From the NCBI GenBank assembly GCA_039029035.1, contig JBCCGX010000002.1, positions 1-32,050 of the forward strand: a stretch of 32,050 nt of DNA. Direction: 5' to 3'. How positions within the stretch are numbered: the stretch's first letter is position 1; each line of letters starts with the position of its first letter. The position numbers and the translations under genes were made by a program. Under the pieces are notes generated by a model. The model worked only from the letters and a program-made list of their open reading frames with translations. It was not told the origin of the DNA and did no database searches. Of this stretch, positions 4,368-19,413 are shown one piece after another. This DNA is from Acidobacteriota bacterium. Its GTDB lineage: Bacteria; Acidobacteriota; Thermoanaerobaculia; Multivoradales; J023.

Positions 4368-4774
4368 TCACCTCCGTCACCGCCCTCTTCCGCTTCCCAG
4401 GTGCCCGGGTCGGGGTCTTCTCCCGGCAAACCAGGCCGTTGATAGAGCAGGCCCTTGATTCGTTTCTTGCCGAACATCGATGGCTTCCAGCGGTAGATGA
4501 CGAAGTCGCATGGGGGAGGCGATTCCCCGCCTTCCGTTTGCACGTTCGGGTTGACCGATCCACAGAGGGTATTGCCATCCGGGCTGGAATAGTCGACCTG
4601 CCAGAAGTTCGGGCCGGTATTCGGCACCACTGCGGTGACCTGCTTCGTGGTGCCCAGATGCTCGGGCGCAATGTCGATCTTCGGATCGCCGTCCATCGGC
4701 GGAGGGAGGATGGCCTTAGCCAATCCGCTTCGAGAGGTGACTTTCCAGCTACCGTACAAAGGGTGATCTGTCAT
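4361..4774 (-). CDS. Hypothetical 137-aa protein with an acidic Gly-rich C-terminal tail, in the operon between the anti-sigma and CHAT genes
   Basis: ATG 4774 is preceded by GAGGAA with a 5-nt spacer. It starts 9 nt after the anti-sigma stop, and its last codons contain the CHAT-1 RBS and start (7-nt overlap). I see no signal peptide and no family I can name. Confidence 0.75.
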   Translation of the reverse strand: MTDHPLYGSWKVTSRSGLAKAILPPPMDGDPKIDIAPEHLGTTKQVTAVVPNTGPNFWQVDYSSPDGNTLCGSVNPNVQTEGGESPPPCDFVIYRWKPSMFGKKRIKGLLYQRPGLPGEDPDPGTWEAEEGGDGGEC

Positions 4775-4783
4775 GGTGTTTCC

Positions 4784-5506
4784 TCACTTCTCAAGATTGT
4801 TGCGTTCCGAGTACTCACCGCGTCGCACACGGAAAGGGAACCGCATCACCTGCGGTGACCCGCCCGCTGGGCTCGACGGTGCCAGCTCCAGGGTGTAATC
4901 CGCCGCCTCGAGCCAGGTCGAGTGGATGCTGAGCACCACTTGACCAGCAGCATCGGGGGTTAGCGACTCGCTGTGCCAGAGGACAGGGCCCCCGGTCTGG
5001 ACGAGGCGACCTCGATACGATGCTGCGGCCGAGTCGGGGGGGAGTTGGAGAGCGAAGGCCATCCACTCGGGCTCGGAGGTCAACGTCAGCTGAACGCTGG
5101 GCTCGTCGCCCGGGGCAGAACGCTCCGGGCTGAGGACGATACCCGTGCCTGTCGGTCGCGGTGCCAAGGCCTGGTCGAGCTCGCCTCGCAGGTCGGAGAT
5201 CCGCGAACCGAGCCACACCGAAGGCAAGATCGCTACCGCTATGAGGCCGAGGACCAGGACGCCTTGCAGCGGCCGGCCGTAGCGCGCCAGCCAGGCGAGC
5301 ACGGCGCTCCGCGCCACGGTCTTTGTCCCTTCCTCGGCCGCCACTTCGCGCAAACCTTGCACCAGCCGCTTGCTGAGCTCGAGCTGTTCCAAGCACTGCG
5401 AGCAGTCGAGGTAGTGCTCCTCGAATTGCCCTGCCTCTCCGGCTGTGAGCTGGCCCAGCAAGTAGCGCTCCACGATGTTGTGCTCCTCGATGCTCGAGTG
5501 ATCCAT
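4784..5506 (-). CDS. Anti-sigma factor: N-terminal zf-HC2 anti-sigma domain, one TM helix, extracytoplasmic C-terminal domain
   Basis: MDHSSIEEHNIVERYLLGQL..EEHYLDCSQCLEQLE matches the H-x3-C-x2-C signature. TM helix is VLVLGLIAVAILPSVWLG. AAGGAG lies 6 nt upstream of ATG 5506. The gene sits directly downstream of the ECF sigma gene. Confidence 0.85.
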   Translation of the reverse strand: MDHSSIEEHNIVERYLLGQLTAGEAGQFEEHYLDCSQCLEQLELSKRLVQGLREVAAEEGTKTVARSAVLAWLARYGRPLQGVLVLGLIAVAILPSVWLGSRISDLRGELDQALAPRPTGTGIVLSPERSAPGDEPSVQLTLTSEPEWMAFALQLPPDSAAASYRGRLVQTGGPVLWHSESLTPDAAGQVVLSIHSTWLEAADYTLELAPSSPAGGSPQVMRFPFRVRRGEYSERNNLEK

Positions 5507-5609: not shown

Positions 5610-6233
5610 TCATGTTTCAGCCTCGCTGAAGCCCGGCAGCCTCTGCCTCTTGTGGTAGCGCTGCACCAGATCCTTGAGCCGTCCGCGAGCCCGGTGTAGA
5701 ACGCGGTTGAAGTGGAGGCTGGAGAGGTCAAAGGCGGCGCAGATGTCTTCTTTACGGTGCTCGGCGATAAAGAAGCGAAAGAGGATCTGGCGGTCGCGCT
5801 CGGGCTCGAGCTCGGCCAGCAAACGGCGCACGATGGTGGCGTTCTCTTTTGCGAGCAGGCGAGCCAACGGGCTAGGCGCGGGATCGGGTGGCGGCGCCAC
5901 GTCGTCCGCACCGCCGCCCGAGACCGTTGGCTGTTTGACCCCTTTGCGGTATTCGGCGATGAACAGATTGCGCGCGATCTGACGGATGAAGGCGGCGAGC
6001 TTGTCGGGATCGCGCAACTCGCCGTCACGGACCTTCTCGAGTGCCAGCCTGAAGGTCTCCTGGTGCAGGTCGTCGGCCCGCGCCGGATCACGAGTGAGCT
6101 CGAGCAGCAGAAACTTGACACCGCGACTGAAGCGCTCGACCATCTCGACTTCGGCCTGAGCTTCGCCGGCCAAGATTCGGCGCACCAGCTCGGCGGGAGC
6201 CGCTGGGGAAGTCGGATCCAGAGGTGTCATCAT
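5610..6233 (-). CDS. ECF-type RNA polymerase sigma-70 family factor
   Basis: Region 2 (DDLHQETFRLALEK..FIRQIARNLFIAEYRK) and region 4 (RQILFRFFIAEHRKEDICAAFDLSSLHFNRVLHRARGRLK) are recognisable. The ORF is open to 6284, but the ATG-ATG pair at 6233/6230 gives a typical N-terminus, so the start is uncertain. Confidence 0.92.
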   Translation of the reverse strand: MMTPLDPTSPAAPAELVRRILAGEAQAEVEMVERFSRGVKFLLLELTRDPARADDLHQETFRLALEKVRDGELRDPDKLAAFIRQIARNLFIAEYRKGVKQPTVSGGGADDVAPPPDPAPSPLARLLAKENATIVRRLLAELEPERDRQILFRFFIAEHRKEDICAAFDLSSLHFNRVLHRARGRLKDLVQRYHKRQRLPGFSEAET

Positions 6234-6348
6234 CGACGCTGCAAGCGGTCTGAGCGGAATATGGCGAACCTCTCCACGATACATGAGATTGCCGTCCTCG
6301 TCGATGTGCTCGCGAACAATCCGAGTGGATTAAAATGTCGGCTGGGGA

Positions 6349-6413: not shown

Positions 6414-6923
6414 ATGGAGGAGAGTGGACACGACGGGTCGCCGAAGGACGGGCTGCCGAAAGATGATTCGTCGGAGGACGACGTCCTCGCGGTCGCCCGT
6501 CGAATTTTCCAAGAGAAGGTCCCCTTCCATCGCACCCTCGGCTTCGAGATCGCGGTCGACACGGCCGATCGCGTCGCCCTGCGCTTCGATTTTCGCCAGG
6601 GTTTGATCGGTAACCCGGTGCGCGGTGCCCTGCATGGTGGGGTGATCTCCGCTGCCTTGGACTCGATCGGCGGCTTGGTCGCCTTCGTCGATCAACTGGA
6701 GAAGATGCCAGAGGCGAGCAGCGAAGAGAAACTGGCTCGCTTACGGCGCATCGGCACCGTCGACCTACGGGTGGACTACCTGCGGTCGGGCGTCGGCGAG
6801 TACTTCCTGGCGACGGGCGAGGTGCTCCGGGCCGGCAACAAGGTGGTGGTGACCCGCATGGAGTTGTGTAACGACGCAGGCACCAGGATCGCAGTTGGCA
6901 CCGGGACCTATCTGGTCAGCTAG
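6414..6923 (+). CDS. PaaI/hotdog-fold thioesterase family protein
   Basis: This is the C-terminal part of the 403-aa track ORF. ATG 6414 is preceded by AGGAGG (6404-6409). The motif NPVRGALHGGVISAALDSIGG plus the ..VVVTRMELCNDAGTRIAVGTGTYLV pattern is typical of PaaI-type thioesterases. Confidence 0.9.
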   Translation: MEESGHDGSPKDGLPKDDSSEDDVLAVARRIFQEKVPFHRTLGFEIAVDTADRVALRFDFRQGLIGNPVRGALHGGVISAALDSIGGLVAFVDQLEKMPEASSEEKLARLRRIGTVDLRVDYLRSGVGEYFLATGEVLRAGNKVVVTRMELCNDAGTRIAVGTGTYLVS

Positions 6924-7513
6924 CCTGCCATTCGTCCGTCGAGCTCGAGCTCGGCGGCGACGCCTTGCATTGCTTCCAGCACGTTGCCGACGTGTTGCCA
7001 GAGCTCCAGCTTGTCGTCGAAGCATTGCTGGCTGAACGCCGCGGCGGCTTCCTGGACTTCCTGACGGTCGACGGCGGCGCAGAAATGCTTGTCCTTCCAG
7101 TTGCGCTTGACCGACTTCACTTTCATTCGCCGCAGGTCCTTCTGCGGCCGCACGTAGGCCCCAGCGATGATGATGCCGGTGATCTCGTCGCAGGCGCAGA
7201 GGGCAAAGTCCATCGGTGCTGCGGGGTGCACTCCGCTACCGGCGGGGTTGTGGGCCAGGATCGCTTGCACGACCTCGTCGGGACAGCCACGCTGGCGCAG
7301 GATGGGGGCGCCCTCGGCAGGGTGCTGCTCGGTCGTCGGATGAATCTCCCAATCGAAGTCATGCAGGAGGCCGGCCAGACCCCAGGCCTCGGGATCGCCG
7401 TCCAGCTTCGGGGCATACCAGCGCATCGCTGCTTCGACGGCCAGCATATGGCGCCGCAGGCCAGCGTCCTGGACGTGCTCGGTCAAGATTTCCCACCCGG
7501 TCGCTCGATCCAT
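6920..7513 (-). CDS. HD/HDIG-superfamily metal-dependent phosphohydrolase
   Basis: Contains LAGLLHDFDWEIHP and ..VVQAILAHN. AAGGAG lies 6 nt upstream of ATG 7513; the upstream Arg-rich extension to 7627 looks non-coding. The stop overlaps the thioesterase stop (CTAG 6920-6923). Confidence 0.88.
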   Translation of the reverse strand: MDRATGWEILTEHVQDAGLRRHMLAVEAAMRWYAPKLDGDPEAWGLAGLLHDFDWEIHPTTEQHPAEGAPILRQRGCPDEVVQAILAHNPAGSGVHPAAPMDFALCACDEITGIIIAGAYVRPQKDLRRMKVKSVKRNWKDKHFCAAVDRQEVQEAAAAFSQQCFDDKLELWQHVGNVLEAMQGVAAELELDGRMAG

Positions 7514-7632
7514 CGCAGGCTCCTTGGTCATCTCTGGGGGGCGCGATCTTAGCAGGGACGGCCGACGGCGGTTCAACCTCGGCCGGTGATTCGATACCAT
7601 GGGCCGAGCTCGACGCACGCGGGACAATACCG

Positions 7633-8382
7633 ATGAAAACGACCCTTCTGCCGACCGACGACGCGGTGACGCTCGAATTCGAAGCGGTGCCGGAGGTGGA
7701 GAAGTTCTTCACCGACGTCAAGGCGCAAGCCGGCTTCTATATCCAGCTCAATCGTGAGCTCAAGCAATACCAGCGCCTCACCTTCACCGCTATGGCGCCG
7801 CCGGCCTTCGAGTTCGGCTTCGAAGCCGAAGTGATCCAGGTCGTGCCTGGGCACGCTGGCTGGGGAACCGCCTTTCAGCTCTGCTGGCGGCCCGGACAGT
7901 CCGAGGAGCTCGATCGCAAGCTGAAAGGCCGTTCCCGGCGCGACAACAAAGACGACGCCTCGGTCAACTCGCCGCTGTTTCGCATCAAGAACATGAATCC
8001 CACCGAGCGTTTCCTGCTCGCTACCAAGGCTTCGCGGACCGAGCGCCAGATCCTGCTGCGAGATACTGCACCCCAGGTCCTGCTCGGCCTGCTAGCCCAT
8101 CCCCGGTTGGAGGCCAAGGAAGTTCTGGAACTGGTCAAGTCGGCCCACGCTACGGGGGCTATGATGGACCGGGTGGCGGGCAACCGCAAATGGATGTCGA
8201 ACCCCGAAGTGCAGCTAGCTATTCTCAAGAGCCCCAAGACCTCGCCGCCTCTGGCGATCAAACTGCTCGAGACCGCTCGCACCCAGGATCTGCGGATGCT
8301 GGCTAAGAGCTCCGCAACGCGCGAGCAGGTGCGCCGCGCCGCGCTGCGGGTCTACCTCAAGCGCACCGGGCAGAAGAAGTAG
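7633..8382 (+). CDS. Hypothetical protein: small N-terminal beta domain plus a C-terminal helical (HEAT/LRV-like) repeat region
   Basis: In-frame ATG 7633 of the 388-aa track ORF; the upstream part is Arg/Pro-rich antisense of the HD gene. It has repeated helical units (..APQVLLGLLAHPRLEAKEVLELV..NPEVQLAILKSPKTSPPLAIKLL..). The family is not identified. Confidence 0.8.
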   Translation: MKTTLLPTDDAVTLEFEAVPEVEKFFTDVKAQAGFYIQLNRELKQYQRLTFTAMAPPAFEFGFEAEVIQVVPGHAGWGTAFQLCWRPGQSEELDRKLKGRSRRDNKDDASVNSPLFRIKNMNPTERFLLATKASRTERQILLRDTAPQVLLGLLAHPRLEAKEVLELVKSAHATGAMMDRVAGNRKWMSNPEVQLAILKSPKTSPPLAIKLLETARTQDLRMLAKSSATREQVRRAALRVYLKRTGQKK

Positions 8383-8399: not shown

Positions 8400-9128
8400 T
8401 CAGGAGAGCTTCGGAAAGAGGTAGCCGAAGCCGCGCCGGGTGAGAATGTAGTGCGGCTTGCGCGGTGAGGCCTCGATTTTCTTGCGTAGCCGGTAGACGT
8501 GTGTCCTGAGGGTGTCTTCGTAGACGTCTTCGTTGGGCCACAGGCGTCGCAGCAGAAATCCTGTGAGCATAGTGTGCCCAGCGTTGCGCATCAGGATGTA
8601 GAGCAGCTTGTTCTCCGTCGGCGTGAGCACAACCGGCTGGCCAGAGACCCAAGCGGTCTGGCGGGCGAATTCGATTTCCAGCCGATCATCGATCCGCGCT
8701 CGGGGCTCCTGGGCATAGGAGAAATCGCCGATTCGCCGTAGCAGGCGCTCGACCCGAACGATGACCTCAGCCGGCTCGAAAGGCTTGACGATGTAATCTT
8801 CTGCCAGTCGGCGTATGGTGTCGACAACCGTGCGGGTGTCACTCACCCCGGTCAACATGATGATCGGCAGATCGATGAACTCCTGGATCCGAGCGCAAAG
8901 CTCGATACCGGTCATGCCCGGCATCATGATGTCGATCACTGCTAGATGGGGTAAGCCGCGAGTCTCCAGAATCTCTAGCGCTTCCTGGCCGGACGAAGCC
9001 GACCAGACCTTGTACCCAGCAAGCTCGAACTCCGAACGCAGTAGCTCGGAGATCGCCAGATCGTCGTCGACCGTCAAAATACGATGATTGGCCTGCGGCC
9101 AGACCGCGGAGTCGCTCGGCATGCTCAT
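8400..9128 (-). CDS. OmpR/PhoB-family response regulator (receiver + winged-helix DNA-binding domain)
   Basis: Receiver features are ILTVDDD, AVIDIMMPGMTG and YIVKPF. The C-terminal trans_reg_C pattern is LTPTENKLLYILMRNAGHTMLTGFLLRRLW...LRTHVYRLRKKIE...ILTRRGFGY. Confidence 0.95.
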   Translation of the reverse strand: MSMPSDSAVWPQANHRILTVDDDLAISELLRSEFELAGYKVWSASSGQEALEILETRGLPHLAVIDIMMPGMTGIELCARIQEFIDLPIIMLTGVSDTRTVVDTIRRLAEDYIVKPFEPAEVIVRVERLLRRIGDFSYAQEPRARIDDRLEIEFARQTAWVSGQPVVLTPTENKLLYILMRNAGHTMLTGFLLRRLWPNEDVYEDTLRTHVYRLRKKIEASPRKPHYILTRRGFGYLFPKLS

Positions 9129-9227
9129 CCCCCCAGAGGTGGCGGAGAAGCAAACTACCTGCCGTTCGATTCCTTCCCCTTGTTCGCCAGGGCCTCACCA
9201 GCGAAGCGCCGCATAGCGAATTGGGCA

Positions 9228-9256
9228 ATTATAACGATTGCAGCCGAATGGTACAA
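9228..9256 (-). promoter_or_regulatory. Candidate sigma-70-type promoter for the OmpR-family regulator gene
   Basis: The minus strand reads TTGTAC - 17 nt - TATAAT (perfect -10 at 9233-9228, -35 at 9256-9251), about 100 nt upstream of ATG 9128 in an AT-richer spacer. Confidence 0.4.
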
Positions 9257-9270
9257 TTAGACGCCCAAAT

Positions 9271-9759
9271 TCAAGAGATCTGTGGAACACCCACCGTGCG
9301 ACTGGCCTTCCACGGGTAGTGGTTCCAATCCAGCCAGTAGCCACCGATATCGTTCATCAACTGAGCGAATTCAGCAAAATCGATCGGTTTGACCAAGTAG
9401 CTGTTGGCCCGGTGGTTGTAAGCTCGGCCGACATCCGTATCGGCACGGGACGTAGTCAAGATCACGATGGGCATCTCGTCGAACTGGCCTGAAGTCCTGA
9501 CCTGGTTGAGCACGTCGAGTCCGTCCACTTTGGGTAAGCGCAGATCGAGCAAGACCATCTGTGGGCGGGGGAATTGTTCGGTGTCGGCATAGGCTCCGCG
9601 GCCGAACAAGTAGTCTAGCGCTGCTTCGCCATCGCTAATGTGAGTGATCTGAGCTGCCGGGTGGTTCCTGAAGCTACGCATGACCAATTCGGCATGATCA
9701 TCATTGTCCTCGACGAGCAAGATATGAACCGGGTAACTGATCTCGAGGTTTTTCGTCAC
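9271..9759 (-). CDS. Single-domain CheY-like response regulator (Rcp1-like class with C-terminal W-x3-N tail)
   Basis: Contains ILLVEDNDDHAELV, MVLLDLRLPKVDG, YLVKPIDFAEF and GGYWLDWN. I prefer GTG 9759 (AAGGAA 6 nt upstream); the ORF is open up to ATG 9933, so the start is ambiguous. Confidence 0.9.
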   Translation of the reverse strand: MTKNLEISYPVHILLVEDNDDHAELVMRSFRNHPAAQITHISDGEAALDYLFGRGAYADTEQFPRPQMVLLDLRLPKVDGLDVLNQVRTSGQFDEMPIVILTTSRADTDVGRAYNHRANSYLVKPIDFAEFAQLMNDIGGYWLDWNHYPWKASRTVGVPQIS

Positions 9760-9942
9760 GGCGATTTCCTTGGCGGTGGTTCCGAGGGGTTGAACAAGCT
9801 TTTGGACGAGAGGACGGTGTCCGAGAGACCTGCCTGTCGAAGGTCGGGCAGAGACGGCTTGGCCCCGGGGCAAGGGTGCGGTTTCGCTGTCCCAAAGCGA
9901 GGCCGCTGGAAAGATCTGAGGGGAGTATTGCATCGCAGTAAC

Positions 9943-9960
9943 ATGACGTTACCTATGACA
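9943..9960 (-). promoter_or_regulatory. Site A: phased direct repeat TGTCAT-N6-CGTCAT (minus-strand reading)
   Basis: Plus strand ATGACGttacctATGACA in a 12-bp register. It lies upstream of, and co-oriented with, the CheY-like regulator gene: 184 nt from GTG 9759, or 10 nt from ATG 9933. Confidence 0.5.
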
Positions 9961-10264
9961 GCACGAACCCATAAGAGTGCGTCATCGGGCGGGCACCATC
10001 GGGCCCCACGACAGCTGGGCTGGGGCAGCGAGGCGGATACTCGGCTCGTCGCGCCGGGTGATCAGACCTGGGATGGGGGGAAAAGACTGCGCCAAACAAG
10101 GAGGGGCGCCGCCCCGCGAGCGGGCGGCGCGAAGCTACAATCGACTTCCGCCAGGACGGCGTAAAGAGGCTCGTAGCAGCGGTGAGGTCAGGGCTGGAGA
10201 GAGTGAGCCCCGACAAACGTTGCGGAGGTTGAGGTAGGCTTCATCGGACTTGGCGATGGGCGGC

Positions 10265-11650
10265 TCATGCAGCCGCCTGGGGTGTGGCGATCGAAGTTTC
10301 ATCCAGCGCTACGAGTTGCTCGAGCTTGCGCTGCAATTGCTCGTGGCGAAAGGGCTTCTTCAGAAAGTCGATGTCGCGAGCTCCACCGAGCAGCTCACTG
10401 AGGGTCTCGCGATCCTGGGTGTAGCCGGAAATGAAGACGATCTTGGTCTCCGGGCGGTCCGCCTTGATCGTCTGCGCCAGCTCCAGCCCGTCCATGCGCG
10501 GCATGACGATGTCGGTCAGCAGGAGGTCGATCGGACCGTCATGCTGCTGGGCCAGCTCGACGGCGGCGACGCCGTCCGCCGCAGCCAGCACATGCCAGTT
10601 CCTCTGTTGTAGGAAAGCCCTGAGCACCAGCTGCATGGTGGGGTCGTCTTCGGCCAACAGCAAGGTTCCCGGCCGGCGTTGGTGTTCGACTTGGCGTATC
10701 GCCGACTCAGCCGGCTGCTGGTTGCTTGCCCTGGGCTCCTGAGCTACCGCGGTTCGAGGAAGATAGACCCTGAAGACGGAGCCGCGACCCGGTTGACTCT
10801 CGACGCGGATCTGGCCGCCGCTCTGCTTGACCCAGCCGTAAACCATCGACAGCCCGAGGCCGGTGCCGTTGAGGTTGGCCTTGGTCGAGAAGTAAGGCTC
10901 GAAGATTTTTTCGTAGCTCGATTCGTCGATCCCGTAGCCAGTGTCGCGTACCTCCAGCAGTACATAGCGGCCGCGGTGAATCCCGAAGTGAGCAGGGGAA
11001 AGGTGGTCGAGGGTCAGCTCGCGGGTCTTGAATGTCAGGCGTCCGCCCTCCGGCATAGCTTTGAGGGCGTTGGCTGCGAGCTGCGCCAGGATCGCCTCCG
11101 CTTGGTTGGGGTCGACGCGTACAGCGTCCGGGCCGGCTCGTAGGTCGACCTCGACCTCGACCGTGTCTGGCACCTCGGGGAGCAGTTGCCGTGCCGCCGC
11201 AGAGACGATGGGATCGAGAAGCACAGGTCGGCAATCGAGCAACTGCTGCTGACTGAAAGCGAGCAGCTTCTTGACCTGATCGCTGGCCAGATGTGCAGAG
11301 TTGGCAATCTTCTCTAGGTAGAGAGCCCGATCATCGCTGGATTCGCTGTGGCTCGCTAAGTCACAGAAACCAACGATGCCGGCCAGCAGGTTGTTGAAGT
11401 TGTGCGCCACGCCGCCGGTCACCCGGGCGATCGCTTCCATCTTCTGAGCTTGCGCAAGCTGGCGAATTTGTCGCTTGCCGACCGCCATCGGCTCCGTTGG
11501 GACCCCCGACTGAGAGGGCTCGACCGAGCGTCGCCGCCGTGAGCGACGGCTGGCTGGTCTGCTCTGATCGGCAGCCGTTGGTGTGAGCAGCCGTAGATCG
11601 AGCAAGGGATCGTGCGCGGGCAGATGTGCGAGTCTCTCAACGGACGACAT
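10265..11650 (-). CDS. Soluble hybrid histidine kinase (HisKA-HATPase_c-REC) with no recognisable sensor domain
   Basis: H-box is GGVAHNFNNLLAGIVG and the ATPase G-boxes are RDTGYGID and GTGLGLSMVYG. The C-terminal receiver has LLLAEDDP, LLLTDIVMPRMDG and FLKKPF. There is no TM segment. Confidence 0.93.
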   Translation of the reverse strand: MSSVERLAHLPAHDPLLDLRLLTPTAADQSRPASRRSRRRRSVEPSQSGVPTEPMAVGKRQIRQLAQAQKMEAIARVTGGVAHNFNNLLAGIVGFCDLASHSESSDDRALYLEKIANSAHLASDQVKKLLAFSQQQLLDCRPVLLDPIVSAAARQLLPEVPDTVEVEVDLRAGPDAVRVDPNQAEAILAQLAANALKAMPEGGRLTFKTRELTLDHLSPAHFGIHRGRYVLLEVRDTGYGIDESSYEKIFEPYFSTKANLNGTGLGLSMVYGWVKQSGGQIRVESQPGRGSVFRVYLPRTAVAQEPRASNQQPAESAIRQVEHQRRPGTLLLAEDDPTMQLVLRAFLQQRNWHVLAAADGVAAVELAQQHDGPIDLLLTDIVMPRMDGLELAQTIKADRPETKIVFISGYTQDRETLSELLGGARDIDFLKKPFRHEQLQRKLEQLVALDETSIATPQAAA

Positions 11651-11754
11651 GACTTCCCTTCCTAAACACTACGCGGGCCTACCGGTGCCCTCGACGGCTC
11701 GTTCGGCGCTATGGGGTGACCGCCGAGTTGATTGGGCTACTAGACCGCATCAAA

Positions 11755-11772
11755 ATGACGTTCCAGATGACG
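11755..11772 (-). promoter_or_regulatory. Site B: exact direct repeat CGTCAT-N6-CGTCAT (minus-strand reading)
   Basis: Plus strand ATGACGttccagATGACG, about 105 nt upstream of, and co-oriented with, the hybrid kinase start at 11650. Confidence 0.55.
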
Positions 11773-11855
11773 CGTCGATGGTTTTTCTGGCCGGGTTGTG
11801 AGAGGCGACCGCGAGCTGTGCCACAGCCCGCAGCAGACTCGGTAAAGGGCTCGGC

Positions 11856-12281
11856 TCAGGTCGCTGCACCGTCGTCGTGCGGCTCCACCGGCACTTCGAT
11901 CAATTGCTCTTCGCCGAAGGGCAAGCAGAGGCTCATAGCATCGGCCGCCTCGTACTCGACCTGGAACTCGCCCAAGCGGTTGCTTCGGGTGGCGGCCAGA
12001 AGCTCGTCGCCGGCGACGAGATAGACCGGTAGGCCGGATAGGGGTTTGAGCGGGTCTTTGCGGTCGGCGAGTTGGCCGACGATCGTTGCAGCAGCGGATT
12101 GGGGTGCTTTGTCGAGCCGTATGTCGAGGCAGAAATCCTCCACTTCATAGAGCAGGTGCCGGCTCGTGGTCCCGCTACGGCGGGTGCCGGCGGCCATGGC
12201 ACGGCTCGCGGTATCGAAAATCAGCTTGGCTTGCATCGGCGTGCGGCGACGTAATATTTCGGATCGGTCGAATCGTTCCAT
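11856..12281 (-). CDS. Hypothetical 141-aa protein, possibly with a small beta-sandwich domain; acidic C-terminus
   Basis: ATG 12281 is preceded by GGAGGA with a 7-nt spacer. The coding-like composition looks good. It is separated from the upstream CHAT gene by a 329-bp spacer that contains site C. No family assignment is possible by eye. Confidence 0.7.
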   Translation of the reverse strand: MERFDRSEILRRRTPMQAKLIFDTASRAMAAGTRRSGTTSRHLLYEVEDFCLDIRLDKAPQSAAATIVGQLADRKDPLKPLSGLPVYLVAGDELLAATRSNRLGEFQVEYEAADAMSLCLPFGEEQLIEVPVEPHDDGAAT

Positions 12282-12485
12282 GATCGATTCCTCCAGGGCG
12301 GAACGGCAGCTGCTCGAAAGACGCTACCAACGAGAAAAGACAAGTCAGGAATGAGTTCTCGAAGCAAGCTAGCGGTTTCCGATCCCAAGAGTCCGATCAG
12401 GCGGCGCTGGCCACGGACTTGAGTCTCTCGCTCAGCTCAAATGATCACTCGACCCTCTCCATGGCAGGCATTAGAGAAAATCAAT

Positions 12486-12514
12486 ATGACGATCTATATG
12501 ACGGGTGCATGACA
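12486..12514 (-). promoter_or_regulatory. Site C: triple direct repeat TGTCAT-N5-CGTCAT-N6-CGTCAT (minus-strand reading)
   Basis: Plus strand ATGACGatctatATGACGggtgcATGACA in 12- and 11-bp registers. It sits in a local AT-rich patch about 205 nt upstream of, and co-oriented with, the 141-aa gene. Confidence 0.55.
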
Positions 12515-12610
12515 TCTTCCGGGGGGCTTTCACACGCTCAACCCTCCCTCGCGCTTGCTCGCTCTACCAACAGAGCCTACTGCTCTAGCCGTCATTTCCG
12601 GCGGGGCCAC

Positions 12611-15541
12611 TTAACAGCCCGCGCAGGGCTTTCCGATCAGGACGAAGGGGGCCCAATGGTAGGGCTGTGGATGGCTCTGGCGGAGCTCCAACATGGCTTG
12701 TCGCACCGCCTCCGCCCGGTCGTCGGTGGTGGCGAGCCGGCGGTATAGCAGGGTCATGAACTCGGCTGTCGAGGCGTCGTTGACATCCCACAAGCTCACC
12801 AGGGCGGAACGTGCGCCGGCGTAGAGCAGACCCCGGGTAAGGCCGATCAGCTCGTCACCGCTTTCGACCGCGTGGGTCCCCGTGGCGCAGCCGGACAGCA
12901 CCACCAACTCGGCCTCCAGCTCTAGCTGGTAGAGATCGAAGAGGGTCAAGCGCGAGGTACCCAGCTGGATGGCCGAGAACATCGGGTTGTCGAGCCGAAA
13001 GAAGCCGTGGGTCGCGATGTGCACCAGCCGACTGGACGGACCGTGGTCGCGCAAGCGGGCCTCGGTGGCCGCTTCGCCGACGAAGAGCTCGGAATCCGGC
13101 AGGGAAGCGGCTACGGCTTCTACTTCGTCGCGGATCTTCGGCGTCAGCTCGTCCGGCACTCCGAGCACCAAGGCGCCGGAGCTGGAGGCTTCGGGCTTGG
13201 CGCAGCACATGGCGAGAACGCTGGCACTCGGAGCGTAAGAGAGGGTAAAGCGATCGATCAGAAAGCGGTCGCCGTCCCAGAAGGCATGGAAGGGGAGGTA
13301 GTGCAATGCGCCGTGCGGCACGATAATCAGCCGGTCCGCTTCGAGGTGCTCTTCGATCGGCGCGACCAGGGCGTCATAGAGCTCACCGAGGTGCGCGAGC
13401 GCGTCGTGGTAGATCCTGGCGCCGAAGACCTCCAGGTAGTCCGGCGTGAGCTGGAACTTGGCCAGCTGGAAATGCAGCAGCTGTTGGTGGGATAGGACCG
13501 CATCGACTTTGCCCAGGGGTTGCACTGTGAGCCGATCGGCGCCAAGCACAGCGACGAAGAAGGTGCCGCGGGCAGCGAAGTACTCGAGCAACAGGGTTGC
13601 TTGAGGCAGCGCGGCGCGCAGAGTCTCGAGGTCGAGGCTGCCGGCGGCCTGCAGCGAGCCGAGCTCTAGGTCGCCTGAACGGATCTCGGCCAGGAGGCGT
13701 AGGACGCGCTCTTCCTGCTCGCGGCAACGCTGCCGCAGATGCGGCAGGTCGCTGGCCGAGACCGCTGTGGGGGTCTCGGTCTGTCGCGGCGCGGTGGCAT
13801 CACGCCGTCCTGTCGGCTCGGCCTGCCGGGCGAGCTTCGATTCGCACAAGTTGATCTGGCGGTAGGTCCAGTTGAGCTCCTCGCGGCGTTGGCGAAGCTC
13901 ATCGACCAGCGCCTGGTGGCTGTGTCTCGCCGCCGGCAAAGCATCGGCGCGGAAGGCGACGAGGTCGGCCAAGCTGCGCGACTTCGCCTGCTCCATGTAG
14001 AGCAGGGCGGCGGCCTGGTCGTCGGCGCTCGGCGCGTCGGCCAAAGTCATCCAGATCAGACTCTCGTAGATCTCGTATTTGTCTTCCAAGAAGGCGATCT
14101 TGAGCTCTTCACCGCGCAGATGGCTGTGCAGGTCTTCCAGCGCCTCATGGGCTTGACGAAAGGTCGCGAGGGCTGCCAGACGATTGCCCAGCGCCTCTTC
14201 CACCTGGCCGAGCAAGTGATACGCGCGGCAGGTCGTGGCCGGTACTTCGATCGCCTGCAACTGCGCGAGAGCCGAGAGGCAAAACTCCCGGGCGGCGCGC
14301 GGCTTGTCTTGGGCCAGTTCGAGGCGAGCCAGGAGCAGTTGGCACAGAACCGCCTTGCCGGCCTGGCCGAAGCGCCGGAAGCGCGCCATCGCTCGGTCAG
14401 CCGATTGCCGGGCTGAAGAGAAGTCTCCTTGCTGTTCGAGGATCAGGGCTCGATAGAGGTCGATCGTTGCCGGCCAGATCCGGTTGCCCTCTTGGCGGAA
14501 GAGCTCGTGTGCCTGGGCGAAGAGCTCGAGCGCCTGTTGCACGACGCCCTGCCGGCCAGCGGCGATGGCGCGGAAGGTCATGGCCTTGGCGGCTTCATAG
14601 CCGTTGCCGAGCTTCTCGAAAGCAGTGAGAGCCCGGTCGGCGAAGTGCGCGCCGTCGGCCGTCAGATTGAGCTCGAGATAGATTTCGGCCTGATCGAGGT
14701 CGCACAGAGAGCTATGGTAAGGATCGGCCAAGTCGGCTAGCTGGTGGCGCGTCTTGCGGTAGAGCTCGAGGGCGCGAATGTACTGGCCGCGCAGGAAGTA
14801 GAGGTAGGCGATGTTGTAGTCAGCCTGGGCAGCAACGGGCCACATCTCATGCTGCTGGCAGTGGTCGGAGAGCTCTTCGTAGGCCGCCAGAGCAGCGGGA
14901 AGCTCGGTCAGCCCGATCCGGCAGACGGCGATGTTGTAGAGTGCCGCGGCGACGTCTTGGGGCTCACCGTCGGTACGAAAGGCGGCCAACACGCGCTCGA
15001 AGCGTTGCAAGGCTTCGCCGAGCTGGCCTTGTCGCATGAAGATCTGCGCTTCGTTGCTGTCCAGCCTGGCGAGCAGCAGCGGTTCCTTGTGTTGCTCGAA
15101 GATCTCCCGCGCCGCGACGGCAGCGGTGAAGGCCGCTTCGTAGCTCCCGACCAGGATCAGTGCGTGGATCGAGCTCGACAACGTGATCGCCGCATCGACC
15201 TCGGCGCCCTGGGCTTGGAAGAGCCGGGTGGCGGCACGGTAGTGCTCGAGGGCGCCGTCGTAGCGCCCGGCGACATAAGCCAGGTTGGCGAGGGACTTGG
15301 CGGCCAGGGCGCGGCCAAAGTCGTCGTCCAGCTCGTCCGCCAGCCAACGGCTGGCGCGCGCCAGCCGCTCGGCCAGCTCACGATCCTGGCGCAGGGCCTT
15401 GAGGACTTCTTGGCTGAGCCGTTCGAGAGCCGTGCGGTTGCGCAGACTCGGGCGTCGGGCGAGCAGCTCGGCTCGTTGGGCATCGCCCTCCAGATGGGCC
15501 AGCTCGTCGATCCAGCGGCCTAGCTGCCCGTCGGTCGCCAA
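12611..15541 (-). CDS. Cytoplasmic TPR-repeat CHAT-domain (caspase-like) protease, paralog 2
   Basis: 976-aa ORF. TTG start at 15541 has GAGGAA 5 nt upstream; there is no in-frame ATG for about 170 codons. It has no signal peptide, a long TPR-like helical-repeat N-half, and a CHAT domain with His in HIATHG and Cys in VVLSGCATG. Confidence 0.95.
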   Translation of the reverse strand: MATDGQLGRWIDELAHLEGDAQRAELLARRPSLRNRTALERLSQEVLKALRQDRELAERLARASRWLADELDDDFGRALAAKSLANLAYVAGRYDGALEHYRAATRLFQAQGAEVDAAITLSSSIHALILVGSYEAAFTAAVAAREIFEQHKEPLLLARLDSNEAQIFMRQGQLGEALQRFERVLAAFRTDGEPQDVAAALYNIAVCRIGLTELPAALAAYEELSDHCQQHEMWPVAAQADYNIAYLYFLRGQYIRALELYRKTRHQLADLADPYHSSLCDLDQAEIYLELNLTADGAHFADRALTAFEKLGNGYEAAKAMTFRAIAAGRQGVVQQALELFAQAHELFRQEGNRIWPATIDLYRALILEQQGDFSSARQSADRAMARFRRFGQAGKAVLCQLLLARLELAQDKPRAAREFCLSALAQLQAIEVPATTCRAYHLLGQVEEALGNRLAALATFRQAHEALEDLHSHLRGEELKIAFLEDKYEIYESLIWMTLADAPSADDQAAALLYMEQAKSRSLADLVAFRADALPAARHSHQALVDELRQRREELNWTYRQINLCESKLARQAEPTGRRDATAPRQTETPTAVSASDLPHLRQRCREQEERVLRLLAEIRSGDLELGSLQAAGSLDLETLRAALPQATLLLEYFAARGTFFVAVLGADRLTVQPLGKVDAVLSHQQLLHFQLAKFQLTPDYLEVFGARIYHDALAHLGELYDALVAPIEEHLEADRLIIVPHGALHYLPFHAFWDGDRFLIDRFTLSYAPSASVLAMCCAKPEASSSGALVLGVPDELTPKIRDEVEAVAASLPDSELFVGEAATEARLRDHGPSSRLVHIATHGFFRLDNPMFSAIQLGTSRLTLFDLYQLELEAELVVLSGCATGTHAVESGDELIGLTRGLLYAGARSALVSLWDVNDASTAEFMTLLYRRLATTDDRAEAVRQAMLELRQSHPQPYHWAPFVLIGKPCAGC

Positions 15542-17301
15542 AATAGTTCCTCAGCATTCCACAGCGTGTGATGCGGCAGGACCGCAGGACGAAAGTTACC
15601 CAGGCTCGACCGAGCACCGACCAGGACGTTGGGGCTCACTAGGCTGAGGACCGGCAGATTCTCGGCCACCAACTCTTGCACTCTGTGGTAGCGTTCCCGC
15701 CGGGCCTCGAGATCGAGGGTGGAGCGTTGCTCGTCCATGAGTCGGTCGATCTCGGCCTGCCAGGCGCCTTCTGGCGCCTGACCCAGGCGCCAGAAGTGAT
15801 TGCTCCCGGAAGAGGTCAGCACACTGACCATGGGATTGGGGCCGCCGCTGCCACCGCCTAGAGCGATCAGACATAACTCGTAATCGAAGCTCTGCAGCAG
15901 GCGTTCGGAAACGGCGCCGAGGCTCAGGGCAGCAACTCGAACCTCGACACCCAATGGGCGCAGATCCTCCTGGATGACAGTGGCGGCCGCCGTCATTTCG
16001 GGCCGGCTGGCGACGGTCAACAGCGACAGCTCCACCCGTTGCCCGCGGTCGTCGTGCAGGCGGCCGGCGTCATCCCAGCCAAACCCGGCCCCGGCGAGCC
16101 GCCGCCGGGCGTCCTCCAGTGAGGTCTTTGGCGGCACCAGATTGGCGCTAGGCCAGTCCCTGCTGCCGGGAGAAACGAGCGCCGCCAGAGGTGTTGCTCG
16201 ACCCTGGAAGACCAGGCGCACCAGGCCTTCGACATCGATCGCTGCGCGCATCGCCCGGCGGAAGGCCAGCTGGCGGAACCAACGCTGCTTGTCCGCAGTG
16301 TTGGGCAGGCCCTTGGATGTGAGGTCGTTGAGGTTGAAGAACAGGAAGTAGAGGTCGAGGCCGGCGCCCAAGTCTGCGAGCTGCAGCTCGCTTTGTGACG
16401 CCTGCCGGTTGAGCAAGGCGAAGTCCGCTGGACTGATGCGATCGGCGATGTCCAGGTCGCCAGACATCAAACGCAGGGTCTGGGCCTCCTTGGCGACGAA
16501 GAGAAAGACTAGCTTATCGAGGTAGGGTAGTGGCTGGCCGGCGGCGTCGCTCCGCCAGTAGAAGGGGTTGCGCTCCAACACCAACCGTTCGCCTGGAACC
16601 ACCTCGCTCAGGCGGAAGGGGCCCAGTCCGGCGATGTCTTGGGGGGCCACATCGAGGCCCCAGGCTTGACGCAAGTGGCCCGCCCGGTAGATCGGCTCGA
16701 GGCGATGGCGGGGCAGGATGGCGATGCCGTCGAACAGGCGTTCGCCAGCGGCGTAGGGTTCCGCTAGCTCGACCTCGACCGTCAGGTCGTCGATTCGCCG
16801 CACGTCTGGTGCCACGCCGCCGACCCGCAAGAGGGCGCGTTCAGGGGAGCCGATGGCTTCATCGAGGTAGACCTCGAAGGAGAAGAGTACGTCATCAGCC
16901 GTCGCCGGATGCCCATCCGAGAAGCGCAGGCCGGGGCGCAGCTGCAGGGTGATGCGCCGCCCGTCTGGTGTCGTCTCCCAAGACTCGGCCAGCGCCGCCA
17001 CGGGCTCCTGGGTCCGACGATCGATGTGCACCAGATTGGCCGTCATGCGATGGACGATCGCGCGCGACTGAAGATCAGTGACGAGCACTGGGTTGAGCGT
17101 CAAGGGCTCGGCCGAGAGCGCGACCACCAGACGCCCACCGGAGTGCCCGATCTCGACCGTCTCGCCAGAGGCCGATCGAACAGGAACCTCGGCCGGCGGC
17201 GTGGCTGGTCGAGTGCACGCCAGAATAGCTAGCAAGGCCGCAGTCAACCGCCAGCGCGGCGCGGCTTGGGCGCGCAGCTCTTTCCCCTTCCCTATTTGCA
17301 T
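15520..17301 (-). CDS. Family-5 (peptide/nickel/opine type, DppA/OppA-like) ABC substrate-binding lipoprotein, orphan
   Basis: The lipoprotein signal ..RLTAALLAILAC is followed by typical SBP_bac_5 content (TLNPVL, LRFSDGHP.TADDV, ERNPFYW). I prefer ATG 17301; GTG 17310 is also open. The stop at 15520 lies 22 nt inside the CHAT-2 ORF. Confidence 0.92.
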   Translation of the reverse strand: MQIGKGKELRAQAAPRWRLTAALLAILACTRPATPPAEVPVRSASGETVEIGHSGGRLVVALSAEPLTLNPVLVTDLQSRAIVHRMTANLVHIDRRTQEPVAALAESWETTPDGRRITLQLRPGLRFSDGHPATADDVLFSFEVYLDEAIGSPERALLRVGGVAPDVRRIDDLTVEVELAEPYAAGERLFDGIAILPRHRLEPIYRAGHLRQAWGLDVAPQDIAGLGPFRLSEVVPGERLVLERNPFYWRSDAAGQPLPYLDKLVFLFVAKEAQTLRLMSGDLDIADRISPADFALLNRQASQSELQLADLGAGLDLYFLFFNLNDLTSKGLPNTADKQRWFRQLAFRRAMRAAIDVEGLVRLVFQGRATPLAALVSPGSRDWPSANLVPPKTSLEDARRRLAGAGFGWDDAGRLHDDRGQRVELSLLTVASRPEMTAAATVIQEDLRPLGVEVRVAALSLGAVSERLLQSFDYELCLIALGGGSGGPNPMVSVLTSSGSNHFWRLGQAPEGAWQAEIDRLMDEQRSTLDLEARRERYHRVQELVAENLPVLSLVSPNVLVGARSSLGNFRPAVLPHHTLWNAEELFWRPTGS

Positions 17302-17492
17302 GGTTTCCACCCAGCACTGATTCTATGAAAGAACCGGTCCTGCGGCAGGTGTCTTGGAAATATTTCAGTGATCCCTGTGTGTTTATTCTCCTACCGACCA
17401 TTCGGCACGATGTCGTCGCTCAATTTGAGACCGCTCGATTTTCTATTGCCAATATCTTGGTGGTGGCTATATTTCAAGGTTTTCTCGGTCGA

Positions 17493-17596
17493 TGCCATGT
17501 TTGTCGTCATGTTCACTGTCTCCTACCGTCATATTGGTAGTCGTCATGTTCGCCGGCATATTGCGCCTGTTATGTGATCTGTAACTTCGACGTCAT
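17493..17596 (+). promoter_or_regulatory. Site D: array of about 6 CGTCAT-type direct repeats in the AT-rich divergent spacer between the binding-protein and S8 protease genes
   Basis: Hexamers start at 17493 TGCCAT, 17505 CGTCAT, 17527 CGTCAT, 17542 CGTCAT, 17554 CGGCAT and 17591 CGTCAT. There are two 12-bp-phased pairs (17493/17505 and 17542/17554). The exact 12-mer GTCGTCATGTTC occurs at 17503-17514 and 17540-17551. Confidence 0.5.
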
Positions 17597-17970
17597 CTTT
17601 TTTGTCAGGTTGAGATCATCAAATGGATTTGTCGAGAACACAAGACAGGGACTGATCGAACGCATAGTCAAGAACTTGACTGTTTATCGGCGCATTGTTT
17701 CGGCGATGCGTCGTTCGAGGCCGGATGCTCGGGCATGGTCGTCGCGAGCTGCTGGCGAACAGGTTCCCGCGTCAGCGCCCTCCGGGTTGACTTCGGCCTT
17801 CATCCGCAGCGAGCCGATTCGACCGAAATCTCCTCATCGGTTCTCCCGGGGGGCGCTGCTTTTTCGAGACCTGGATGATCGGCAGGTGACGCGTTTGGAT
17901 CGGCGGTCTGAATTGGCTCCCGTCGACATCGACTCACAACGTCGCAACTGGCAGAAGATAGGAGGGTTTG

Positions 17971-19413
17971 ATGTTAGCTCGTACCACCCGTTCGTTGCTC
18001 CTTATCGTCGTTCTCGCACCCTTGGGGCTCGCACCCGCACTAGCGCAACCGCCAACTTCGCCGCCCGACAACGACTTCATCCTGCGCGGCTCGGCGACGG
18101 GCCTGGCGTCGGTTCTGGCGAGCCACGGGCTGACCGAGATCGACCGCCTCGACTCGCAGCCCGCGGGGGAGGATGTCTGCCTGGTGCGCGCCGACGCCAT
18201 GGCGGATCCGCAGCAGGTGGTTGACGACCTGAGCCTCGAGCCAGCGGTCAACGCGGTGGAAGAAGTCTTGCTCGCCAACCTACCGGAGACCTACAGCAGC
18301 ATGGACCTCGAGCCGCTGATGTCGGTCGTAACCGGGGCGCTGGGCGACGCCAGCACCGTGGCTTTCGGTACCGATGCGGCGGGGAACAGTCGCTCGGTCT
18401 GGACCAGCTATGTCGATCAGACCGCTGCCCAGATCCTTCGAATCAGCGAAGCGCAGAGTACCTATGACGGTAGCGGAGCGATCGTCGCGGTCATCGACTC
18501 CGGCATTGACCCTGACCACCCGCTCTTCGCCGGCCACTTGGTACCGGGCTACGATTTCGTCTTGGATCAGCCCGGAACCGCGTCCGAATGGTCTCTACTC
18601 AACGAGTCGAGTATGGCGATCCTCGGCGAGTCTTCGATGGCGATTCTCGGCACCGAGGATACGGTGCGGATCAATGAGTCGTCGATGGCGATTCTTGGTG
18701 ATCATCAGGCCAACGATCTGGTGGTCGAAGACATTCCGCCTGCCTTCGGCCACGGCACCATGGTCGCAGGCATCATCCACCGTGTCGCGCCGGGCGCCAA
18801 GATCATGCCGCTGCGGGCTTTCGACGGCGACAGTACCGCCAGCCTGTTCAACATCGTGCGCGCTATCCACTACGCGGTAGACAACGGTGCGACGGTGATC
18901 AACATGAGCTTCAGCCTCGAGACTTTTTCTTGGGAGCTGGTGCGGGCAGTGGGCTACGCTCTGTCGAACGGTGTGAGGCTGATCGCTTCGGTGGGCAACG
19001 CTGGCAGCAACATAGTGGTCTTCCCTGCCGGCTTGCTCGGCGTCTTCGGTGTCGCGTCGTCGGACGATGTCGACAGCCTGAGCGGCTTCTCCAACTTTGG
19101 TCTGCTTCAGGCGACCATCGCGGCGCCGGGCGAGAACGTGATCACGGCCTACCCGGGCGGCGGTTGGGCAGCAGCTTCCGGTACCTCGTTCGCCGCGCCC
19201 TGGGTCAGCGGTGCGGTCGCCTTGTTTGCCGACAAAAGGGGAAGTGGTGGTCCAGGCGAGGTGAGGACGCTCGAGATCCTCAGTGCTCTCGGAGCGGACG
19301 ATCCGCTTTATGGGGCCTCACCCAACAGTGTGTTCCACGAACGGCTCGACATCAAGGCGGCCCTCGACTCAATTAGCGAGGGGGGCGCAGGACCGTGGTG
19401 GTGGGGTAATTGA
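17971..19413 (+). CDS. Secreted subtilisin-like serine protease (peptidase S8)
   Basis: GGAGGG lies 4 nt before ATG 17971 (TTG 17968 is also open). The signal peptide is MLARTTRSLLLIVVLAPLGLAPALAQ. The catalytic triad motifs are VAVIDSGID (Asp), HGTMVAGI (His) and GTSFAAPWVSG (Ser). Confidence 0.95.
   Translation: MLARTTRSLLLIVVLAPLGLAPALAQPPTSPPDNDFILRGSATGLASVLASHGLTEIDRLDSQPAGEDVCLVRADAMADPQQVVDDLSLEPAVNAVEEVLLANLPETYSSMDLEPLMSVVTGALGDASTVAFGTDAAGNSRSVWTSYVDQTAAQILRISEAQSTYDGSGAIVAVIDSGIDPDHPLFAGHLVPGYDFVLDQPGTASEWSLLNESSMAILGESSMAILGTEDTVRINESSMAILGDHQANDLVVEDIPPAFGHGTMVAGIIHRVAPGAKIMPLRAFDGDSTASLFNIVRAIHYAVDNGATVINMSFSLETFSWELVRAVGYALSNGVRLIASVGNAGSNIVVFPAGLLGVFGVASSDDVDSLSGFSNFGLLQATIAAPGENVITAYPGGGWAAASGTSFAAPWVSGAVALFADKRGSGGPGEVRTLEILSALGADDPLYGASPNSVFHERLDIKAALDSISEGGAGPWWWGN
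18604..18699 (+). repeat. In-frame 24-nt periodic repeat inside the S8 gene encoding ESSMAILG three times (units 1, 2 and 4; unit 3 = TEDTVRIN)
   Basis: Unit 1, 18604-18627: gagtcgagtatggcgatcctcggc. Unit 2, 18628-18651: gagtcttcgatggcgattctcggc. Unit 4, 18676-18699: gagtcgtcgatggcgattcttggt. Every nucleotide difference among the three units is synonymous. Confidence 0.9.

Follow-up and report, generated by a model that had tools for sequence, protein, structure and literature searches.

The window analysed here is a stretch of 32,050 nucleotides from an Acidobacteriota bacterium (GTDB lineage Thermoanaerobaculia, Multivoradales, J023; assembly GCA_039029035.1, contig JBCCGX010000002.1, positions 1 to 32,050, forward strand). 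Its central feature is a pair of overlapping genes on the minus strand. The first encodes a solute-binding lipoprotein (SBP) of family 5, the peptide/nickel type (15520-17310), and the second encodes CHAT-2, a cytoplasmic TPR-CHAT caspase-like protease of 976 aa (12611-15541). An initial annotation, made from the sequence alone, described the two as a self-contained, translationally coupled system. The coupling is borne out. The self-containment is not, given that related loci carry an importer, a sigma factor, an anti-sigma factor and an S8 subtilase in addition. Three partners of the pair had also been overlooked: a divergent S8 gene, the anti-sigma origin of a 141-aa protein, and the synteny of the two-component genes.

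The SBP open reading frame (ORF) comprises 596 aa, of which the database gene call retains 593, starting at M4, and it matches PF00496 with 233 bits (E 6e-69) against a gathering cut-off of 32.4. A hydrophobic signal stretch followed by an ILAC lipobox can be read from the sequence at its N-terminus. Among solved structures, its nearest relatives are SPH1118 and AppA, which binds nonapeptides. More than 3800 homologs exist, and the best 120 listed are 50-65% identical and derive mostly from Acidobacteriota. CHAT-2 matches PF12770 (235 bits, E 2e-69) and TPR_12. It begins directly with the TPR region and contains neither a membrane helix nor a zinc motif, and inspection of N-termini detected no signal peptide in CHAT-2 or in its homologs. 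Its CHAT domain matches chains of Csx29 (E 1e-7), and its TPR region gives generic matches to RapF and RapJ (E 1e-9). The catalytic dyad, H845/C885, is invariant across 24 homologs and is thus intact, as had been claimed. The assignment of the SBP to the exterior and of CHAT-2 to the cytoplasm also agrees with these features. That one message should serve two compartments had been considered unusual, but any binding-protein-dependent ATP-binding cassette (ABC) operon does likewise.

How secure is the junction between the two genes? Read directly, the SBP and CHAT-2 ORFs overlap by 22 nt within a coupling junction on the minus strand (15520-15552). A GAGGAA Shine-Dalgarno sequence (15552-15547) stands 5 nt from the CHAT-2 TTG start (15541-15539), and the SBP stop codon, TAG, occupies 15522-15520. 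From the in-frame upstream stop as far as W10 (in 'WIDEL', aligned with WLGEL or WIGHL in homologs), where conservation begins, this TTG is the sole ATG, GTG or TTG, and no alternative start codon occurs downstream of it across the first 47 codons. The TTG start is effectively forced. The combination of a 22-nt overlap, TTG and GAGGA(A/G) is found in three genomes (the window, L004 and L086), and five more distant genomes (L001 and L005-L008) have a TGATG stop/start overlap at the same junction. Retention of an overlap in relatives argues that the junction is not due to chance. A 1502-aa 'SBP::CHAT fusion' (P0133, L001 10001-14509) was rejected as an artefact of a frameshift within the SBP gene of a long-read metagenome-assembled genome. 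There the SBP C-terminus (query 499-592) is read in a different frame, which has a stop codon of its own and shows the TGATG junction; the frameshift leaves the CHAT frame open upstream.

Is this adjacency unique to the genome analysed here? A profile of CHAT-2 was used to scan GTDB species genomes and detected at least 527 relatives, nearly all from Acidobacteriota; 80 loci were kept. A CHAT-2 homolog (P0192) also occurs in a cultured bacterium, Candidatus Solibacter usitatus Ellin6076. Gene content was then counted by tblastn, using proteins of the window and of related loci, in the 56 or 58 loci with enough flank. In 47 of 56 loci the SBP gene stands upstream of the CHAT gene at a distance of at most 2.6 kb, and the adjacency is therefore not unique. 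In most loci the two genes are separated by a gap of about 600 nt encoding a sigma factor of the extracytoplasmic function (ECF) type with Sigma70_r2 and r4 domains; such a gene is present in 47/56 loci and stands between SBP and CHAT in 42/56. A full ABC importer, composed of a fused double ATPase and two permeases, accompanies the SBP in 43 of 56 loci. Rather than an orphan, as the initial annotation had it, the SBP would ancestrally be the fourth gene of an ATPase-permease-permease-SBP importer. Downstream of the CHAT gene are a homolog of the 141-aa protein (50/58 loci) and an S8 subtilase (51/58). The canonical order is ATPase, permease, permease, SBP, ECF sigma, TPR-CHAT, soluble anti-sigma and one or two copies of S8, after which an HD protein often comes next. 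Judged by its content and order, the full set appears to be an uncharacterised signalling operon, widespread in Acidobacteriota.

Several observations on the canonical loci stand beside this. Two genomes, L014 (1-9000 and 9400-19500) and L015, each possess two paralogous SBP/sigma/CHAT/small/S8 systems side by side; the S8 of the second system in L015 was not detected. Throughout L033-L060, the Candidatus Angelobacter group, a AAGGTAACTTGTT block is conserved upstream of the ATPase gene, at a distance of about 200-250 nt, and GGTGAACA...TGCxGCATAATG is conserved further downstream of that block; these two elements may act as sigma-dependent promoters for the canonical operon. Near the canonical cluster of L001 (22426-24509) there is a gene for an nSTAND1 NTPase with a CHAT-SIR2 gene, a pair that resembles a conflict system and is unrelated to the operon.

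The window and its closest relatives carry a trimmed form of the operon. Only the loci nearest to the window, namely L004-L008 and L001, are without both the sigma gene and the N-terminal zinc anti-sigma (ZAS) domain, and no sigma homolog lies between SBP and CHAT-2 in the window. L001 and L005-L008 retain the importer; the window, L004, L084, L085 and L086 have none. When the ATPase and permease proteins of a related locus served as tblastn queries, nothing in the 32-kb window matched, and no such genes lie in the flanks of L004 and L084-L086 (10 kb where the contig extends that far), in agreement with the earlier statement that no ABC permease or ATPase flanks the pair. The direct SBP-CHAT junction is derived and arose after the sigma gene had been lost. 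By the same comparison, the window pair appears to be a reduced, rewired copy of the canonical operon, from which the sigma factor, the anti-sigma N-terminal domain, and the permease and ATPase genes have been lost.

What remains is arranged in a conserved block. In the innermost clade, a divergent S8 gene is followed by SBP, CHAT, the small protein, a hybrid kinase/receiver, a response regulator and an OmpR-type regulator, and this order is conserved in L084-L086. After the OmpR-type gene come an opposite-strand gene of about 250 aa and a gene for an HD protein. In the window, two ORF calls at this place overlap (6920-7627, minus, and 7216-8382, plus), and both are syntenic in L084-L086; homology suggests that the former is the HD-domain gene and that the latter is the ~250-aa gene starting later than its longest ORF. 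The CHAT gene of L085 is tandemly duplicated (10001-16007; 977 and 979 aa, 64-66% identical to CHAT-2), and in L084 an extra GGDEF-EAL gene is inserted.

The small gene (11856-12281, minus) encodes a cytoplasmic beta-sandwich protein of 141 aa, whose counterpart in the cluster's anti-sigma factor is the C-terminal domain. Its family includes 982 cluster representatives, most of them 200-235 aa long with an N-terminal HLxxGCxxC. Full-length members, usually of about 210 aa, combine a zinc anti-sigma motif with a C-terminal domain homologous to the 141-aa ORF and have no membrane helix. The window protein aligns to the C-terminal domain only; the HxxxCxxC motif is not present in it, and the 329-nt gap between CHAT-2 and the small gene contains no trace of a zinc anti-sigma domain. 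The anti-sigma C-terminal domain has a carboxypeptidase-regulatory-like sequence signature. AlphaFold2 (AF2) models the 141-aa protein as all-beta with a mean predicted local distance difference test (pLDDT) score of 89.2, and a Foldseek search of this model against the PDB returned generic beta-sandwich (MG/Ig-like) matches only, with E of 0.01 or higher.

Divergent from the SBP gene is the gene for a secreted S8 subtilase of 481 aa (17968-19413, plus), which matches PF00082 with 122 bits (E 4e-35). A signal peptide can be read at its N-terminus, and the catalytic triad D177/H262/S407 together with N344 is invariant in 61 homologs. The AF2 model (pLDDT 90.9) has a pro-subtilisin fold, with a Foldseek E of 6e-25. 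All cluster-linked S8 proteins have an insert between the catalytic Asp and His, an interval that is almost always 83 aa long, and the insert consists of 8-aa slots with the pattern Q-S-[ST]-x-x-[IV]-L-[DG]. In the window, it holds three ESSMAILG units (aa 213-220, 221-228 and 237-244; 18604-18699, plus). The units are the same within a protein and different between species, with 28 distinct units across 56 loci; those of relatives include QSSMAIL, QSTVAFL (four copies), QSSVVIL (four copies), QETTPIL and QSTVSLL (eight copies in a longer array). Among the 116 S8 homologs in which both catalytic motifs were found, 97 contain at least two identical 7-mers, and where one locus has paired S8 genes, the unit is common to both in 10 of 13 pairs. 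The two paralogous systems of L014 have different units, eight identical copies of QSTVSLL in the second and four of QSTVAFL in the first, and in this they look like orthogonal channels.

Why are the units identical? The three window units encode the same peptide, yet 2-3 of 7 codons differ between them. Across the dataset, a fraction of 0.48 of the codons differs between identical units, compared with 0.58 expected for independent draws from the gene's own usage, and the differences include TCN/AGY serine switches. All three window units have changed Q to E relative to L004. This synonymous divergence between identical units indicates that selection on the peptide, rather than recent duplication or gene conversion, keeps them identical. 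The conserved Q-S start and the I/V-L before D/G would fit subtilisin-type cleavage, in which case the variable positions 3-5 may carry specificity.

Downstream of the small gene, on the same strand, lie three two-component genes (8400-11650): a soluble hybrid histidine kinase-receiver (10265-11650; HisKA, HATPase_c and Response_reg), found at the same position in L084 and L085; a single-domain response regulator (9271-9933), also syntenic, with a CGTCATGTT motif just upstream (9940-9948); and an OmpR-family DNA-binding response regulator (8400-9128; Response_reg and Trans_reg_C), whose homologs at the same position in L084-L086 are 67-73% identical. As a set, they are syntenic in the marine clade L084-L086 at 45-73% identity. 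The motif upstream of the response regulator recurs in the window. CGTCATRTT is observed five times against 0.12 expected, in every case in an intergenic region of the cluster: at 17505, 17527 and 17542 in the S8/SBP divergent region, at 12483 in the gap between CHAT-2 and the small gene, and at 9940. A relaxed form is observed seven times against 0.65 expected, the extra copies being at 17591 and 11752 (11752-11760), and a CGTCAT(N)TT cluster lies at 17505-17599 (plus) in the S8/SBP region. The motif occurs at equivalent places in L004 and L084-L086, and upstream of S8 in L084 and L085. The gap between the CHAT and small genes measures 230-330 nt in the clade, and alignment of five clade members reveals a conserved block in it (12470-12513, minus) with three direct GTCAT repeats spaced 11-12 nt apart and then TAAT, present in all five. 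The CGTCAT arrays are probably a response-regulator operator, for which the OmpR-type regulator is the candidate reader, and the 12470-12513 block may be a promoter that depends on a response regulator and serves both the small and the two-component genes. Since the motif is common to their upstream regions, the S8, small and two-component genes would belong to one probable regulon.

A second large TPR-CHAT gene, whose presence had already been reported, lies 8.2 kb from CHAT-2. This gene, CHAT-1 (957-4367; PF12770, E 2e-66), belongs to a module on the minus strand that also includes the window's only ECF sigma factor (5610-6284), a zf-HC2 anti-sigma factor (4784-5506) and an adjoining 137-aa ORF (4361-4774). 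CHAT-1 has a hydrophobic segment at its N-terminus and is probably exported. The anti-sigma factor of this module gives a weak ZAS-type N-terminal match to that of the cluster (E 3e-4). We considered the 137-aa ORF as a counterpart of the 141-aa protein and rejected it, the two sequences being unrelated.

What, then, might the operon do? The model we favour, and to which we would give roughly an even chance, is import-and-sense signalling in which the CHAT protease is the cytoplasmic transducer and the window holds a reduced, rewired copy. The secreted subtilases would generate a short extracellular peptide, possibly the species-specific octapeptide within the subtilase itself, each unit of which ends in a subtilisin-type Ile/Val-Leu cleavage context. 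The peptide would be captured by the SBP, taken in by the importer and sensed by the TPR array of the CHAT protein. The activated protease would then cut its beta-sandwich partner and, in the full version, free the sigma factor. The SBP and S8 proteins are exported and the sigma, CHAT and anti-sigma proteins are cytoplasmic and soluble, so that the importer would be the only inward carrier of information. In the window's clade, the output most likely runs through the downstream hybrid kinase and response regulators, a rewiring suggested by the sensor-less hybrid kinase and two response regulators that always follow the CHAT and beta-sandwich pair; import, if it still occurs, would proceed via a transporter encoded elsewhere. 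Gene content and order, their conservation, the coupling, the intact catalytic residues, the selection on the repeats and the common motif are observed; which ligand is involved, how the protease is activated, what it cleaves and where the output goes we infer from gene content.

A number of results weigh against this model. The importer genes are missing in the window's clade, and the import step may no longer operate there. L084 has no SBP, and in L085 the SBP is split from CHAT by an inserted S8 gene (1174 aa); with the SBP gone from one genome and displaced in another, it appears to be dispensable or movable within the clade. Family-5 SBPs also bind sugars, opines and metals, and the ligand class is thus not fixed. 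AF2 folds the S8 insert confidently (pLDDT ~79-93), and the insert may serve the structure of the enzyme instead of being released as a peptide; the three identical window units are, however, modelled as helix, coil and strand, and the fold alone would therefore not explain their identity. One S8 paralog of the L001 and L005-L008 clade has degenerate repeats. Partial Mantel tests, in which the distance between repeat units was compared with SBP, TPR and CHAT distances and controlled for permease and ATPase distances, gave no significant co-variation with the SBP (partial r 0.12, p 0.16) or with the TPR region (partial r 0.04, p 0.32); the control proteins scored higher, the permeases themselves with p <0.002, which makes the test uninformative for both. 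Finally, the window sequence occurs in a single run, a marine DNA metagenome, and in no RNA-seq run.

A more specific form of the model is that Acidobacteriota use an octapeptide pheromone for quorum or kin recognition. The units would be cut from the subtilase, re-imported and read by a TPR-CHAT protein that destroys the anti-sigma factor; different units would be pherotypes, and the window would represent a marine lineage re-plumbed to a two-component output. We hold this bolder version to be unlikely. The import-and-sense model would, if true, explain a striking case of peptide repeats that evolve in concert inside an enzyme. Acidobacteriota are among the most abundant soil bacteria, and to our knowledge almost nothing has been learned of communication among them; our literature search found no paper on peptide signalling in the phylum. 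The operon is found in at least 527 species-level genomes and unites, in a so far unstudied arrangement, five well-understood parts: an Opp-type importer, an ECF sigma factor, a zinc anti-sigma factor, a caspase-like protease and a subtilase. The trimmed copy of the window is a natural experiment, in that the S8, CHAT and beta-sandwich genes stay together when the sigma factor and transporter are lost.

Could the operon instead serve nutrition? In a protein-scavenging regulon, the S8 enzymes would be digestive, the ABC importer would take up food peptides, and the sigma, anti-sigma and CHAT trio would induce the operon when peptides build up in the cytoplasm; the S8 repeats would serve structure or zymogen control, and the window SBP would feed another Opp-type transporter. 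We judge this unlikely. Its gene content fits as well as in the signalling model, nutrient uptake is the classic task of family-5 SBPs and Opp-type systems, and the confident fold of the S8 insert and the negative test for co-variation of repeat unit and SBP are both in line with it. Scavenging leaves unexplained why units remain identical within a genome despite near-saturated synonymous divergence, why paralogous S8 genes have them in common, and why they differ between species and between the two paralogous systems of one genome.

The window pair could also be a decaying remnant with no joint function, its overlap the relic of a deletion. In favour of decay are the missing sigma gene, ZAS domain, permease genes and ATPase gene, together with the lost SBP of L084 and the displaced one of L085. 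All four core ORFs are nevertheless intact, with conserved catalytic residues, and are kept across relatives of only 55-67% identity. The 22-nt junction is unchanged in three genomes, the S8 repeats are still identical with synonymous differences and have moved together from Q to E relative to L004, and the cis motif is held in common with the neighbouring two-component genes. Decay is, on these grounds, improbable.

More improbable still is an anti-phage or conflict system in which CHAT and subtilase form an abortive-infection effector and the SBP and ABC genes are bystanders. Defence systems do contain CHAT and subtilase domains, and CHAT-SIR2 and nSTAND genes lie near L001. PADLOC matched no system by several components; its weak matches, to BovA (3e-9) and to a subtilase (2e-17), concern CHAT-2 and S8 at the domain level only, and none of its system models matches the SBP, small protein, sigma or anti-sigma. 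Moreover, the order of the operon is stable across the phylum and tightly packed with the importer, the S8 enzymes are secreted, no hallmarks of mobile elements or islands were seen in the window, and Rfam and tRNA scans of it returned nothing. Last and least probable is the initial annotation's stand-alone pair, in which an orphan SBP signals to the cytoplasmic CHAT protein without transport: there is no transporter locally and the coupling is kept in three genomes, but the ancestral and majority state includes an importer (43/56 loci), an exported lipoprotein is unable to contact a cytoplasmic protein directly, and the SBP is dispensable in L084.

How does the import-and-sense model compare with known systems? 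Our literature search found no paper describing the operon, and the nearest relative in gene context is ECF54. The claim that the pairing is undescribed stands to the extent that no paper on the system was found, but gives way in that a similar ECF54 gene context has already been noted (PMC8999054). ECF54 sigma factors of Actinobacteria (Huang et al. 2015, via PMC8999054) are encoded beside carboxypeptidase(-regulatory-like), subtilase and CHAT proteins; proteolytic control of sigma is proposed there from comparative genomics only, and the anti-sigma factor is said to be missing. Compared by described gene context, the likeness lies in an ECF sigma gene next to carboxypeptidase-like, subtilase and CHAT proteins. 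Unlike ECF54, the acidobacterial operon has a zinc anti-sigma motif in its beta-sandwich protein, encodes a complete SBP-dependent ABC importer and includes S8 enzymes with concerted octapeptide repeats, and the window copy is without any sigma factor.

Two further systems place a TPR-CHAT module in control of a sigma factor. In craspase, it is established that the TPR-CHAT protease Csx29 cuts Csx30, a protein by which an ECF-type sigma factor is bound and inhibited (see also PMC10028731). The type III-E craspase thus resembles our model in that a cytoplasmic TPR-CHAT protease acts on a sigma-holding partner, but the operon has no Cas7-11, CRISPR or Csx30, no cas genes are found among the window ORFs, and the proposed input would be an imported small ligand rather than a target RNA. 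CHAT-2 scores 51.7 bits against the NCBIfam Csx29 model NF041237, whose cut-off is 300, and is not a member. The anti-sigma factor DdvA of Myxococcus xanthus contains a TPR-CHAT domain, and DdvA/DdvS resembles the operon in that a zinc anti-sigma domain is teamed with a TPR-CHAT module and with an ECF sigma factor (PMC11506125). DdvA is, however, a single transmembrane protein with a periplasmic TPR-CHAT region and an incomplete active site (PMC11506125), whereas CHAT-2 is separate and cytoplasmic with a complete dyad and the cluster anti-sigma factor is soluble, and CHAT-2 does not belong with the DdvA-like proteins. The CHAT-1 module of the window resembles a split version of DdvA. If our model is true, the principle of protease-gated sigma release, common to craspase and DdvA, would be extended to the sensing of small ligands.

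The logic of the model also resembles that of the RRNPP systems. In these systems of Firmicutes (Rap/Phr, NprR and PlcR), a peptide is matured outside the cell, imported by Opp via a family-5 SBP and bound by a cytoplasmic TPR receptor, and Phr peptides are matured by subtilisin-type enzymes. By analogy, the acidobacterial operon would follow the same sequence of outside proteolysis, import and TPR sensing. It would do so in a different phylum and with a CHAT protease as output instead of a phosphatase or helix-turn-helix regulator; there is no separate pro-peptide gene, the candidate peptide being embedded in the protease, and similarity in sequence is confined to the level of TPR repeats (RapF and RapJ). 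The operon would then be, if the model is true, a Gram-negative counterpart of RRNPP signalling.

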